64,000 bases of DNA, from positions 9,386-73,385 of the IMG/VR virus record IMGVR_UViG_3300014204_000015; one strand, given 5' to 3'. Position 1 is the first letter of the stretch, and every line of letters begins with the position of its first letter. Positions 17,094-28,380 of this stretch are shown here, piece by piece. The notes under the pieces were generated by a model. The model was not told where the DNA came from, did not search any database, and saw nothing but the letters and a program-made list of their open reading frames with translations. The position numbers were made by a program, and so were the translations under genes. Origin of the DNA: a virus. Taxonomy: Duplodnaviria > Caudoviricetes.

Positions 17094-17585
17094 CTAGAGG
17101 GTATCACTAGTGGGTGGTGTTCGAGGTTCAGCCTTCAGTGAATTGTCAGTTGTCAAGGTTTCTGACTCAAGCACGGCACGCTCGGCTGCGCGGTCACGGT
17201 TCTCCTCCGCAGCCAACGTGTCGGTGTACCGATCAGGGTATCGCTGCCGTAGCTTGGCGATGTTAGCAGCCATGACCTCGCCCATATCAAAACCGAGAGC
17301 GTTACACATCTCAGCCGTGTACCAAAGGAGGTCACCTAGTTCCTCCTTCACATTGACAAGGTCCAGAGGCTTCCCGTAGTATATCCACCGCTCGATGGCT
17401 GCCGAGATTTCTCCCGCCTCCCCGGAGATTCCCATAGCCGCGTGGTTGGCTCGAATCGGGATGAGTTTGTTTTGGACCAACTCATCGTGACAATCGTAAG
17501 GCCGAAAGGCCATCATCCGATCACGAGCAGCCCATTGATCACACTCGGTACGTGACGCCAGTTGTTGATACTCTCTTGGATCCAT
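17094..17585 (-). CDS. MazG-like nucleotide pyrophosphohydrolase
   Basis: MGISGEAGEI...KEELGDLLWY. Confidence 0.85.
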   Translation of the reverse strand: MDPREYQQLASRTECDQWAARDRMMAFRPYDCHDELVQNKLIPIRANHAAMGISGEAGEISAAIERWIYYGKPLDLVNVKEELGDLLWYTAEMCNALGFDMGEVMAANIAKLRQRYPDRYTDTLAAEENRDRAAERAVLESETLTTDNSLKAEPRTPPTSDTL

Positions 17586-17596
17586 TAGTAGCTCCT

Positions 17597-18022
17597 TTAG
17601 TCAATATGCTTCCAGGTTTTTCGTCGAACAATTGCACTAATAAGAGTTTGGTTTACGCCATACTCGTCAGCGAGTCGTTGTTGAGAATACTTTCTGGGCT
17701 TATATTTCCTCCTAATGGTCTTGATGTCTTCGCTGGTTAGTTTAGCCATTGGCTGACTTTCGCCCTTGAGTGAACGGCCTTTAGCAACCATGTCGTCCAT
17801 ATTATCCTGGAGAGTACCCAAGAACCCCTCTGGTATGGGTCCGAAGTGTATCTCCCAACTAATACGGTGGGCCAAATACTCTCCACTGCTTACGGATAGC
17901 ATACCATAGTCACAGGCCCCGTGATTAGAATCAAACAACCAGCACCCATCGACCTGTTTCTTAACTTTAGCCCAAAATCTTATGTCTCTGGATTTTGGAG
18001 GTCTTCCCCGGCTAGTACCCAT
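17597..18022 (-). pseudogene. HNH homing endonuclease with in-frame deletion of the catalytic core
   Basis: RFWAKV...GCWLF...AHRISWEIHFGPIPEG joined directly to FLGTLQDNMDDMVAKGR; the CH-x-CDNP-x-CVNP-x-HL core present in the 28365 paralog is absent. Confidence 0.7.
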
Positions 18023-18581
18023 ACCTAACCTCCCAGAAAACAGTGTTATGACCGGGGACAGTTCCCCAACAAGTCGAAAACGCAGAGAACTCAACGACAT
18101 GGCCAGGATACTCCTCCAGGAGATACTCTAGCCATTGATAGCTTAGGTCATTCATCGACCGTTGAACTAATAGTTTAGCCGCTAGGCCCCGGAGGCTTAT
18201 AGGCCGCTTCCGTAAGGCCTTTCGCATCGGCATACTCCAGCAGTTCCGGGCTCCATAGAACTCCCAGCCCCAAACACCCTCCATGACTTCACCTTGGAGT
18301 ACATTAAGGTGGTGGGGGGCCATTGCGCTGATGTAGACCTTCTCCCCGAGGGACTGCGCGGCGTACCACTTGACGGGTACCTTCTTATGACAAACGTCGT
18401 ACCACGTAGGCCCTCCTGCCCGACGGTTACGGATATGGTAGCGTTGATCCAGGCCCATACGTAACCAGGGCCTATCCTCTAGCCACTCATCGAGGGTATT
18501 CCAAGTAGGAGAGTGATTACCGAATTCAGAGGCTTTGTACCGCAACACGAAGTCTCGCTTTGATAGTACCGGCTCATGCAT
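18012..18581 (-). CDS. Hypothetical protein in the base-modification operon
   Basis: Start placed at MHEPVL (RBS GGGAGG), coupled to the stop of the dUMP hydroxymethylase gene. Confidence 0.6.
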   Translation of the reverse strand: MHEPVLSKRDFVLRYKASEFGNHSPTWNTLDEWLEDRPWLRMGLDQRYHIRNRRAGGPTWYDVCHKKVPVKWYAAQSLGEKVYISAMAPHHLNVLQGEVMEGVWGWEFYGARNCWSMPMRKALRKRPISLRGLAAKLLVQRSMNDLSYQWLEYLLEEYPGHVVEFSAFSTCWGTVPGHNTVFWEVRYGY

Positions 18582-19689
18582 TCTTGACCTCCCACTTAGC
18601 TTGACGACGGGTAATCCATTGACGGCAAGCCATTCGCCAATCACTCGCGTGAATGGACTCTACCCACTTGAGAGCCTCTTGATAGCTCCGCTCCTTGTGA
18701 GCTCGAAAAGCCAAGGCCATCGGAAGGGCTACGTTGGGAAAGAACGGATTGCTCCAAACAGTAGGGAGTAAGTCGTTCAAACCGTTCCCGTAGCCTAGAT
18801 GAACAAACATATTGCATTCGACGTCAAAGCGGTCAGGGTCAAGCACCATCGGGTAGGGGTAAACATTGTCGCGGTACTCTCGATTGTAAGTAGCTTCTAG
18901 CCACTTCGCTGGTGTCCACCGTTCCGTGTAAACGTGAAGGTTGTTCGTGAATTGGTAGTATCTCCCGACGGATACCCCAATTCGGGCTGCGAGATACTCC
19001 TGGAGAACGGAGAAGTGAACGACGTTTGCCCCAAGCATCCCCCAGATCATGTCATTGGATCGGTTACACACCGTCATGTCGAGAAACTTGGTGTAGACGG
19101 CCGTGCCTTGTTCTGAGAATCCGTCGGGCTCTATGGTGAGGGCCTCTCTAATGGCGAAGTAGGCCTGTGTATTACATGGCACATCCTTCCCGCCGTTGAC
19201 GGCTTTGTAGGGGTCGCTCCAATTGGATCCATTAGTAAGCAGGCCAGGGTGAGGAGGTTCTACAGTAGCATCCCACATCTGGAGCACTACCCGTCGGCTA
19301 GTTGGGGTTTTCTTGAGTTCCTCTACGATAGCATCGAGTTGATCGTAGCCGAACCACTTGCGCCAACGGTAGCCGTAGGCTCCGTGGAACACTTCTTGGT
19401 CGTCGCTGAACTCCGTCATCTTGGAGTTATACCAAGCCAGAGGGGTCACATCTCGACGGCCTGCGAGCATCCAGAGGGCTTCGTACAGGTGGAAGAACGG
19501 GTTGCAGTCCCGGGCTTCATTGAACAAAACCCGCTCACACGGATTCCGGTAGGTGACCAAAACCGGCTCGGTGATCTGAATCACATCCCCGTATCGGCTT
19601 GGTGTTTTCCGGGTAGGGAGGAGGCCGTTGTGAAGGTCTTTAACAAGGCCATAGAATGCGTCATTCACGTTCCGATAAGAGGCTTCCAT
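18574..19689 (-). CDS. Thymidylate-synthase-family enzyme, probable dUMP hydroxymethylase
   Basis: YGYRW, RRVVLQMWD, DVPCN, RSNDMIWGMLGANVVHF (Asn kept, consistent with dUMP specificity), NNLHVY; gene neighbourhood. Confidence 0.85.
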   Translation of the reverse strand: MEASYRNVNDAFYGLVKDLHNGLLPTRKTPSRYGDVIQITEPVLVTYRNPCERVLFNEARDCNPFFHLYEALWMLAGRRDVTPLAWYNSKMTEFSDDQEVFHGAYGYRWRKWFGYDQLDAIVEELKKTPTSRRVVLQMWDATVEPPHPGLLTNGSNWSDPYKAVNGGKDVPCNTQAYFAIREALTIEPDGFSEQGTAVYTKFLDMTVCNRSNDMIWGMLGANVVHFSVLQEYLAARIGVSVGRYYQFTNNLHVYTERWTPAKWLEATYNREYRDNVYPYPMVLDPDRFDVECNMFVHLGYGNGLNDLLPTVWSNPFFPNVALPMALAFRAHKERSYQEALKWVESIHASDWRMACRQWITRRQAKWEVKNA

Positions 19690-19785
19690 TGAGATTCTCC
19701 GAAAATAGTTGCCGACGTAAAGTGTTGCCGTATACCCTATTATAAATACCCCGGAAAATTCTTGAAAATTTTCCCAATCTCCCTC

Positions 19786-26867: not shown

Positions 26868-26876
26868 AATGGATTG

Positions 26877-27422
26877 TTAGTTGCGGCTGGCTGTAGCCAG
26901 TTTGGGGAGGCTCTTGACCGAGGACTCGGCCTTGCGTCGGATGTTGATGAGCTGCTTCTGCGAGAAGACATCCTTGACCTTCTTACCAGCTGGAACCTTC
27001 CCGTCGATGAGACTCAGCATCACGTAGTTGACTCGGTGGCCGTTGGAGATTGAGAGTTGAGTCTGCATCGCTGCGTTGACTTCTTCTCCGGTCATCCATC
27101 CAAGTAGCTTCCCGCCGATGTTGTATTCATAGATAGACTGGGAGGCCTTGATCACGCTGCGGGAGGTTCCCACCGTCGTCTTGGGCGTACAACGCTCCAC
27201 GTCAGCCCCGGTTACCTTCCGGGTTCGGAGGTTCTCATGGTGACGAGCATCCGAGATCAATTCCCGAATGGCTAGGGTAATCAACAGATGAACGAAGTCA
27301 TCGAAGTCCGGCAACTCCCGGATAGCCTTCTCAGCCGACGCCACCGCCTTGTCGATGTCGTTGCCATACTTCTTAGCCATCAACTTACAAATTGCCGTTA
27401 CGTCTTTTGGGTATTCCATCAT
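26877..27422 (-). CDS. Hypothetical protein enclosed within the TIGR-like locus
   Basis: 181 aa; AGGAGCGAA-ATG start; guide units on both sides. Confidence 0.7.
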   Translation of the reverse strand: MMEYPKDVTAICKLMAKKYGNDIDKAVASAEKAIRELPDFDDFVHLLITLAIRELISDARHHENLRTRKVTGADVERCTPKTTVGTSRSVIKASQSIYEYNIGGKLLGWMTGEEVNAAMQTQLSISNGHRVNYVMLSLIDGKVPAGKKVKDVFSQKQLINIRRKAESSVKSLPKLATASRN

Positions 27423-27444
27423 TTCGCTCCTAGGGGTAAAAATA

Positions 27445-27495
27445 GGGGTCTAGCAAATATCAAATCGGTTACACAAGGAGTATCGCTCAGGCCCC
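27445..27495 (-). ncRNA. Single TIGR-like unit
   Basis: GGGGCCTGAG-CGA-TACTCCTTG-TGTAACCGA-TTTGATATT-TG-CTAGACCCC. Confidence 0.75.
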
Positions 27496-28380
27496 GTTGT
27501 ACTTACGTTTCATTCGACCGTCGTTGAGTCGGGCTCTTTCGTACTTGTCCCACTCACAAAGTGAATGCTCTACCTCCCTCATCTCGAAGGTAGGCATATT
27601 CTTTAGCTTCCGTCGAACCGTACCCAATAACCCTATTATAATCCCTAGGCAATCTTTCGGGATAGGGGGCGAAGAGGCGTTGTTGCCTTTGGGAAAGTCC
27701 CAACCCATAATCCGGTAGAGGCCCCGGATAGCCCCAGGCCCCGGGTTACACCAGGTCGATACATCGGTGGCGTCTTTCAGTACGTCGGTATAGCGGAGGT
27801 CACAGACTATCTCGTAAGCCATAAACCCTCCCAGACCTTCGTACTTCGACAACGCACGGTGGGCTTCCTGGAGAGTATTCCAAGAACGGGCTGCTTTGTA
27901 GAGGGCCTCACGGTCGTTCCAGACGTTCGTGATTCTCCTACAGATCGCATCTAGCTTCTTCTCCCCGCCTGGGGAGTTGATCATAAAGGCTCCCGTGAAT
28001 ACCTTGCCACCCATATTCCTCACGTGGCCCAAGACACTAAGGGCTAGGTCTTTATCCCATTGAGTCAATAAGTTGTGCTCGATGAGTAGCTCACCCGTCG
28101 GAATGTAGTTGAACCAACGGAAAATGACCGTGGCTAGGAGCACCTCGATGTCGTGTTGGTAGGGGTCCCGTATCTGCTCCCGAAACCATTGGGTTGTCTT
28201 GTCGTTCTCGCGGTATGGGCAAGTAAAGAAGTTGGATTGGAGAATCTCGTCATCCGTCCAGGGCTTCGGCTTACCCATCCGACGTTTGAGGTATATCTGA
28301 TGACGCTCCTTGATCCAATAGAGGAACTTGTCGGTTGGGGACAACTTCGCTACCTCTGCGATCTTCATACATGCCTCCAA
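27487..28380 (-). CDS. 5-hydroxymethyluracil DNA kinase, helical-domain family (formerly aG/PT-PPlase1)
   Basis: [15 protein letters not shown]...PWTDDEIL...[12 protein letters not shown]...FRWFN...[14 protein letters not shown]...GPGAIRGL...[12 protein letters not shown]. Confidence 0.85.

Follow-up and report, generated by a model that had tools for sequence, protein, structure and literature searches.

A predicted M6-type thymidine hypermodification cluster with an intein-bearing radical-SAM gene and an additional methyltransferase-fold gene in an uncultured tailed phage

Thymidine hypermodifications guard phage DNA from nucleases, among them restriction enzymes, and are also a source of enzymes for DNA chemistry. 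The stretch of viral DNA considered here, hereafter the window, comprises 64,000 nucleotides (bases 9386-73385) of IMG/VR record IMGVR_UViG_3300014204_000015. Its positions 17094-28380 carry a cluster of genes predicted to hypermodify thymidine by a route like that of Pseudomonas phage M6. One of these genes is interrupted by an intein, and another encodes a methyltransferase-fold protein without a homologue in M6. The source record is a 73,385-bp virus genome rated 100% complete, with direct terminal repeats and a G+C content of about 53%. Genes for portal, small terminase, tape-measure, PolA, primase, and helicase proteins mark it as a tailed phage.

Genes at the locus

Pfam and PHROG searches place the named pathway families on the minus strand. 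In the direction of transcription, the first is the helical-domain protein of a predicted 5-hydroxymethyl-deoxyuridine (5-hmdU) DNA kinase (27487-28380; PF18723 5.5e-51). Beyond a 2-kb insert come the P-loop catalytic protein of that kinase (24910-25479; Walker A) and a 774-residue radical S-adenosylmethionine (SAM) precursor related to spore photoproduct lyase (SPL-like) and predicted to be an isomerase (22577-24901; phrog_9252 1e-176). These are followed by an amino acid:DNA transferase of aGPT-Pplase clade 2, predicted to transfer glycine (21769-22587; PF18724 1e-13), a fold-type-II pyridoxal phosphate (PLP) enzyme, predicted to be a decarboxylase (20938-21768; PF00291, phrog_7093 4e-64), and the 185-residue methyltransferase-fold protein (20376-20933). 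The run ends with a thymidylate synthase (TS)-fold enzyme, predicted to be a dUMP hydroxymethylase (18574-19689; PF00303 2e-19, phrog_5131 1.5e-97), a conserved protein of 189 residues directly after it (18012-18581), and a MazG-like nucleoside-triphosphate pyrophosphohydrolase (17094-17585; PF03819 8e-12, phrog_229 5e-36).

An earlier sequence-only reading had listed all of these families except the methyltransferase and the 189-residue protein, and the listed genes are indeed present. It had also described one leftward run. That description fits the pathway genes but not the whole stretch, as a gene at 19865-20341 lies on the plus strand and foreign inserts are present.

The reference for comparison is the M6 genome (NC_007809), in which the accessions of gp51-gp54 agree with Table 1 of Lee et al. 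2021 (PMC8989533). All six M6 hypermodification proteins have homologues in the window, with BLASTP E values from 5e-10 to 2e-138, well outside what chance would give. The TS-like protein is 39% identical to gp58 (4e-75), the PLP enzyme 46% to gp52 (2e-78), the transferase 37% to gp51 (1e-58), and the helical protein 35% to gp55 (5e-50). The two exteins of the radical-SAM protein are 51% (N-extein; 4e-36) and 60% (C-extein; 2e-138) identical to gp53, and the P-loop protein is 29% identical to gp54 (5e-10). The functions of the M6 enzymes have been demonstrated biochemically (Lee et al. 2021, PMC8989533). Given six homologues with conserved catalytic residues and an adjoining MazG gene, an M6-type route to 5-(2-aminoethyl)uracil is the best reading of the cluster and a probable one, as the sequence-only reading had proposed from the shared enzyme families.

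The methyltransferase-fold gene and the predicted end product

The window has one candidate tailoring enzyme without a counterpart in M6. The methyltransferase-fold gene begins 4 nucleotides past the stop codon of the PLP gene. The sequence-only reading had equated the gene set with that of M6, which holds for the six components but leaves out this extra gene, whose presence suggests a different end product. The only Pfam match of the protein is to Methyltransf_23, below threshold (best Pfam E value 0.0017). A profile search of PDB sequences with the family gave spurious WD40 matches and weak methyltransferase ones (MraW/RsmH, 2e-4), and it was the fold search that settled the fold. An AF2 model built on 24 homologues has a pLDDT of 92.5. 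Its Foldseek matches reach a probability of 1.0, and alignments of 145-165 residues with RsmD, PrmA, BioC, and many others have VIA Z-scores of 13-14. The modeled protein unambiguously has the class-I SAM methyltransferase fold, with the seven-strand Rossmann-like arrangement, a glycine-rich motif I, and an acidic motif II; D40, G44, G46, E65, D102, and N104 are invariant in the family. It resembles RsmD/YhhF, PrmA, and BioC in fold (rmsd about 3 Å over the same 145-165 residues), in the motif I glycines, and in the motif II acidic residue. It differs from them in belonging to no named sequence family, in a motif IV of D-F-N, and in its context within a DNA hypermodification cluster.

The family has at least 54 other members, all unnamed and all metagenomic. 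No homologue occurs among 50,697 phage records, nor in M6 or the M6-like phage MP1412. A non-exhaustive literature search found no publication on a methyltransferase in such clusters or on methylated 5-(2-aminoethyl)-deoxyuridine (5-NedU). Searches of IMG/VR and a large protein collection supplied relatives of the cluster (contig labels beginning with L). The gene lies directly 3' of the PLP gene in the window and in nine of nine other contexts examined (L004, L075, L076/L077, L078, L084, L085, one GenBank assembly contig, L090, and L091), each in a cluster with a radical-SAM gene. These contexts span two cluster orders; in contigs with the M6 order, the methyltransferase-fold gene sits between the PLP and radical-SAM genes. 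In relatives lacking it, the slot after the PLP gene holds an unknown 263-residue gene and Amidoligase_2 (L006:10875-12643) or Amidoligase_2 (P0058 contig). Such variability is what would be expected of a tailoring position, and the amidoligase genes hint at further bases derived from 5-NedU.

The predicted route can be laid out step by step. The TS-fold enzyme would convert dUMP to 5-hydroxymethyl-dUMP, while MazG probably strips competing dTTP and dUTP. Kinases not encoded by the phage would raise 5-hmdUMP to the triphosphate for incorporation by the phage PolA. The P-loop kinase and its helical partner would then phosphorylate the 5-hydroxymethyl group once in DNA, yielding 5-phosphomethyl-deoxyuridine (5-PmdU). 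In the transferase step, a conserved Cys is predicted to attack C6, with expulsion of the phosphate and attachment of glycine through its amine to give N-alpha-GlyT. After intein splicing rejoins CxxxCxx|C, the radical-SAM enzyme would move the glycine from N- to C-linkage (C-alpha-GlyT), and the PLP enzyme would decarboxylate this product to 5-(2-aminoethyl)-dU. The methyltransferase-fold protein may well then methylate the exposed primary amine or another intermediate, producing a base unlike that of M6. In this scheme, the phage would replace some of its own thymine with a base whose C5 side chain is positively charged. The analogy with M6 and ViI suggests that this shields the phage DNA from host nucleases.

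Two chemical points of the sequence-only reading do not survive. It had 5-hmdU activated by pyrophosphorylation, as in older proposals, whereas gp54 puts a single phosphate on 5-hmdU in DNA to form 5-PmdU (PMC8989533). It also had the genome replace T with 5-hmdU and hypermodify part of it. In M6 virion DNA, 5-NedU makes up about 30% of T, with thymidine as the remainder (Lee et al. 2018, PMC5889632), and residual 5-hmdU is not to be assumed.

Several points weigh against this scheme or parts of it. Each step is assigned by homology. The P-loop protein, at just 29% identity to gp54, fell short of Pfam HMUDK_HMUD1. The transferase is the most divergent component, with 34-50% identity even among close relatives, and this divergence leaves room for a different amino acid. 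The TS-like sequence separates uracil from cytosine preference, not a dUMP hydroxymethylase from a dTMP-forming TS. No dNMP kinase, dUTPase, dCMP deaminase, or thymidylate kinase family is recognizable in the whole 73-kb genome, so the nucleotide-pool steps would depend on the host, and the pathway that the sequence-only reading called complete is complete for the DNA-level steps only. Finally, the matches of the methyltransferase-fold protein are generic, with Z-scores of 13-14 to dozens of unrelated methyltransferases, and its D-F-N motif IV departs from the (D/N)PP(Y/F) of classical amino-methyltransferases.

The 185-residue protein is tentatively placed, at somewhat short of an even chance, as a seventh pathway enzyme that methylates the primary amine exposed by the PLP enzyme or a neighboring intermediate, producing an undescribed base. 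The final base in this phage and its metagenomic relatives may be 5-(2-methylaminoethyl)- or 5-(2-dimethylaminoethyl)-deoxyuridine. Alternatively, the pathway may stop at plain 5-NedU, as in M6, with the protein acting on a protein, an RNA, or an ordinary DNA base, or just binding SAM. This alternative is doubtful but has substance: methyltransferases of rRNA, tRNA, proteins, and small molecules all score Z of about 13, the PDB profile matches are weak, and L003 and L006 have no methyltransferase yet keep the other genes. Against it stand the position directly after the PLP gene in every context examined, across two otherwise different orders, and the occupation of the same slot by the tailoring-type Amidoligase_2 in other relatives. 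Furthermore, 185 residues leave no space for a DNA target-recognition domain, and the phage also carries a separate, conventional N6_N4 DNA methylase (8614-9264; PF01555 5e-27).

Core enzymes, the intein, and the inserts

By sequence, the transferase is closest to glycine-transferring enzymes. Its nearest solved structures are PDB 25qc (8e-53) and the PaMx11 glycinyltransferase gp46 (8z2m; 2e-41). It keeps the equivalents of Glu243, Thr244, and Cys247 of an E-T-x-x-C motif. The glycine-contacting residues of PaMx11 gp46 are Asp24, Trp146, and Lys150 (PMC11472151), and all three have equivalents in the window protein and in every relative that is linked to a radical-SAM gene. Position 146 is Tyr in the PhiW-14 putrescine transferase, and the window enzyme is 26% identical to PhiW-14 gp109. 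The ViI-type serine transferase gives no match to the window transferase.

These residues bear on the proposal that glycine is not the amino acid added by the transferase, in which case the radical-SAM and PLP steps would produce a different alkylamine side chain. The low identity to gp51 speaks for it, as does the spread among close relatives, where the transferase varies far more than the radical-SAM protein (about 73% identity) or the PLP enzyme (58-65%). However, the three glycine contacts are conserved where the putrescine enzyme differs at Trp146, and the radical-SAM isomerase, which in M6 is needed only for N-linked glycine, matches gp53 closely over its C-extein. A different amino acid is thus unlikely, and glycine remains the predicted substrate.

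The other DNA-level enzymes also retain their expected residues. In the PLP enzyme, Lys46 lies in an invariant FSKxRG motif and aligns with gp52 Lys36, which Lee et al. proposed as the aldimine lysine (PMC8989533); the SSGT(I/V)AAG loop is conserved as well. The P-loop protein has a conserved Walker A motif (GTSGSGKT) and is 49-57% identical to the syntenic proteins of L003, L004, L006, L075, L078, L090, and L091, 47% to that of L084, and only 36% to that of L005. Together with the HMUDK helical domain it makes up the two-part signature of a 5-hmdU DNA kinase. The sequence-only reading had counted a P-loop kinase and a 5-hmdU DNA kinase separately. Both genes are there, but they are better taken as the gp54-like catalytic and gp55-like helical parts of one system, and they adjoin or nearly adjoin in the relatives examined.

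The radical-SAM open reading frame (ORF) encodes 774 residues, against 459-484 in the relatives first examined, and alignment attributes the difference to one clean insertion of 317 residues. This class-1 intein (23573-24523) matches Pfam Intein_splicing and PT-HINT and separates an N-extein (24524-24901) from a C-extein (22577-23572), all on the minus strand. The exteins align without gaps to the uninterrupted homologues, and the C-terminal Cys cluster is invariant. The intein lies between CMVGCAF and CYVNSGFRGY and so parts the third Cys of the CX3CX2C iron-sulfur motif from the first two; in gp53 this motif reads CTVGCAFC at residue 125 (Lee et al., PMC8989533). Splicing is predicted to restore CX3CX2C, which with the second Cys cluster gives the pattern of an SPL-like radical-SAM enzyme. 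Class-1 splicing residues are all present: Ser1, the block B TxxH as TGDH, a terminal VHN, and a +1 Cys. Since the third cluster ligand is also the +1 splice nucleophile, the enzyme should be unable to bind a 4Fe-4S cluster before splicing.

Long radical-SAM proteins are frequent in databases. Among the top 120 homologues, 33 have 590-850 residues, most with an insert at the identical site and a few with one further upstream. None of the 33 has an endonuclease in frame, and their intein-frame linkers are 25-37% identical to that of the window, in which the middle of the intein frame is non-domain sequence. On the same strand, a nested ORF of 223 residues in the +1 frame (23581-24252; Pfam Phage_endo_I 2e-5), with the start GAGGAG-N7-ATG, specifies a putative homing endonuclease. 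Its product combines a CxxC...CxxC zinc ribbon with a PD...EVK core of the PD-(D/E)XK type (T7 endonuclease I-like). It is 30-45% identical to annotated phage endonucleases, although the Phage_endo_I match is weak.

Several lines of evidence support the coexistence of the two frames. When the nested gene was resampled synonymously with the endonuclease protein held fixed, the intein frame acquired a mean of 11.9 stops, and none of 20,000 trials was stop-free. T precedes none of the 53 sites where it would create a stop in the intein frame, compared with 45 of 170 other sites. The sole long homologue with DNA available is that of L087, an ENA contig of 126 kb whose cluster is arranged differently. 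Its +1 ORF is 54.6% identical to that of the window (2e-73), its intein-frame linker 25%, and T again precedes 0 of 53 risk sites. Conservation of the +1 product together with stop avoidance in both genomes argues for selection on both frames, in one to preserve the protein and in the other to keep the frame free of stops. A sequencing frameshift was considered as the origin of the nested ORF and rejected, because the same two-frame arrangement and stop avoidance recur in the independent L087 and because no long homologue encodes the endonuclease in frame.

The arrangement, an intein with an out-of-frame homing endonuclease, has a precedent in inteins described by Gosselin, Arsenault and Gogarten (bioRxiv 10.1101/2025.01.02.630785), which likewise have an open, non-domain frame in mid-intein and an endonuclease ORF in another frame of the same strand. 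Those inteins carry endonuclease VII-like enzymes and interrupt DNA polymerase, minor capsid, terminase, and thymidylate synthase genes of actinobacteriophages (bioRxiv 10.1101/2025.01.02.630785). In the window, by contrast, the endonuclease is a PD-(D/E)XK protein with a zinc ribbon, the interrupted gene codes for a DNA-modifying enzyme of the radical-SAM type, and the intein sits within an iron-sulfur motif. The present example is a second, independently conserved case of this architecture, with quantitative evidence of selection on both frames.

Other inteins occur in these phages. A UvrD-like helicase ORF of 866 residues (42341-44941) has a weak Intein_splicing match at residues 556-609 and may harbor a second intein in the genome. 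The TS-like genes of L075 (11704-13716) and L078 (11795-13837) carry an intein with an HNH domain. The intein targets are different genes of the same pathway in different phages.

Further mobile or foreign elements surround the pathway genes. HNH genes lie at 17597-18100 and 28365-28841. The two kinase genes, adjacent or near-adjacent in other relatives, are parted here by an insert of about 2 kb that those relatives lack (25488-27473, minus strand). It contains a Tas-like protein of 312 residues (25697-26635) and an ORF of 181 residues (26877-27422). The Tas-like protein matches NCBIfam TIGR_Tas_endo (NF052498) at 4.6e-19 and 69 bits, below the 100-bit cut-off, and IS110 more weakly. Ten minus-strand copies of the loop motif TGTAACCGA occur in the 2 kb flanking the gene, one of them inside the ORF. 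Single exact copies of this 9-mer are also found at 19060, within the TS-like gene, and at 53134 and 62608.

Four mobile or foreign inserts within 11 kb, together with kinase genes set 2 kb apart, might indicate a cluster in decay, its pathway no longer working because of the intein, the HNH genes, and the TIGR-Tas-like insert, and the DNA unmodified or carrying 5-hmdU only. This is very unlikely, given that the pathway ORFs are all intact with their catalytic residues conserved, that the intein keeps every splicing residue in a frame actively held open, and that the genome is complete with terminal repeats.

Nucleotide-level steps, relatives, and known systems

When the TS-like protein is aligned with six relatives, its residues Cys172 (in PCN), R210-S211-x-D213, Asn222, H252, and Y254 show no variation. 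Asn222 aligns, in HMMER alignments, with the Asp of the cytosine-specific CMP hydroxymethylase MilA, and Asn at this position fits a uracil substrate. Scores against the NCBIfam TS equivalogs do not exceed 59 bits, where the cut-offs run from 108 to 427 bits, placing the protein outside canonical ThyA. The TS fold and catalytic Cys would also suit an ordinary thymidylate synthase or a dCMP hydroxymethylase, with the cluster acting on another base, but this is highly improbable in view of Asn222, the low equivalog scores, the query EFSDD without counterparts to the tryptophans of the TS 'WDEW', the resemblance to gp58, and linkage to the 5-hmdU-specific kinase domain PF18723.

A MazG gene follows the TS-like gene at the same position in L006, L078, and L090, where M6 has the HD hydrolase gp59. 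By inference, MazG clears dTTP and dUTP so that 5-hmdUTP is used. An NT5C-type 5'-deoxynucleotidase gene lies just upstream of the TS-like gene in L003 (4643-5218), L006 (13198-13770), and L084 (7356-7949); the window has none upstream of its TS-like gene, the family having been sought at that position only and not elsewhere in the genome. The 189-residue protein has homologues of 43-48% identity at the same position in L003, L006, L084, L090, and L091. It has no Pfam, PHROG, or NCBIfam match, no Atlas neighbor, and a poor ESM Atlas model, and it may be an unrecognized pathway component.

The plus-strand gene at 19865-20341, transcribed against the cluster, encodes a Lys/Ala-rich, histone-H1-like DNA-binding protein with a C-terminal globular domain. 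Homologues of 52-57% identity share its place and orientation in L075 and L078, and the L006 gene with the same position and orientation matches Pfam HC2 (H1-like). Two ORFs on the minus strand (19661-20230 and 19813-20262) are not counted as genes, being low-complexity shadows of this conserved plus-strand gene.

About ten related metagenomic phages of about 70 kb share the module. In a first group (L003-L007, L075, L078, L084, L090, and L091, on contigs of up to 78 kb) the order is that of the window: PolA, helical protein, P-loop protein, radical-SAM enzyme, transferase, PLP enzyme, methyltransferase in some members, TS, 189-residue protein, MazG, and primase. A second group has the M6 order and includes L008-L011, L076, L085, and L079-L083 as well as cultured Yuavirus, Bordetella, and other phages. 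Outside the module, at least the PolA and primase-region proteins of the window find nothing by tblastn (E 1e-3) in the 19-kb cluster region of MP1412, the only part of that phage compared.

The sequence-only reading also proposed a probable planctomycete host, which the relatives do not bear out. A radical-SAM profile scan of genome contigs found five contigs in metagenome-assembled genomes (MAGs), from four phyla, all distant and all of the M6 order. Just one of the five is binned in Planctomycetota (Thermogutta), the others being Anaerolinea, Flavobacteriales, and Microbacteriaceae, and none is nearer to the window than the Pseudomonas phages are. For host assignment, genome contigs were also scanned with a 969-residue glycosyltransferase-methyltransferase protein of the phage, and no match was found.

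That protein belongs to a second enzyme cluster on the minus strand (48385-55179), which comprises a radical SAM/SPASM protein (48385-49443), the 969-residue fusion of a glycosyltransferase-2 and a methyltransferase (49453-52362), a Caps_synth-like protein (52352-53065), and a radical-SAM-like ORF (53589-54401). Its substrate could be the virion or another polymer. The genome has no tRNA genes.

To our knowledge, radical-SAM chemistry is known to install a DNA modification in the M6 route alone. The present cluster and its relatives suggest that this route is widespread in uncultured phages of about 70 kb with a different gene order, where an extra enzyme family that is conserved in metagenomes and found in no cultured phage may well alter the final base. 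If so, the gene position behind the PLP decarboxylase would be a place where these pathways generally diversify and new chemistries arise, some phages having a methyltransferase there and others an amidoligase. In the window, the modification enzyme itself is predicted to depend on protein splicing within its iron-sulfur motif.

Among characterized systems, the 5-NedU pathway of M6 (Yuavirus; gp51-gp55 and gp58; Lee et al. 2018, PMC5889632; Lee et al. 2021, PMC8989533) is the closest. The two share six proteins at 29-60% identity and the same predicted chemistry as far as 5-(2-aminoethyl)-dU, and both clusters adjoin a family A DNA polymerase (PolA, 28835-30895 in the window). They differ in gene order, which is helical-kinase-rSAM-transferase-PLP in the window and transferase-PLP-rSAM-kinase-helical in M6 (rSAM, radical SAM). 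The window also has MazG in place of the HD hydrolase, the extra methyltransferase-fold gene, the intein in the radical-SAM gene, and kinase genes split by a TIGR-Tas-like insert. More distant are PaMx11, which makes 5-acetylaminomethyl-deoxyuridine (5-AcNmdU), and ViI, which makes 5-(2-aminoethoxy)methyl-deoxyuridine (5-NeOmdU). Both have the 5-hmdU DNA kinase (5-HMUDK) and a clade-2 transferase in common with the window, and ViI has a PLP decarboxylase as well. PaMx11 employs an FAD lyase and an acetyltransferase, neither of which the window has, whereas the radical-SAM isomerase of the window is lacking in ViI.

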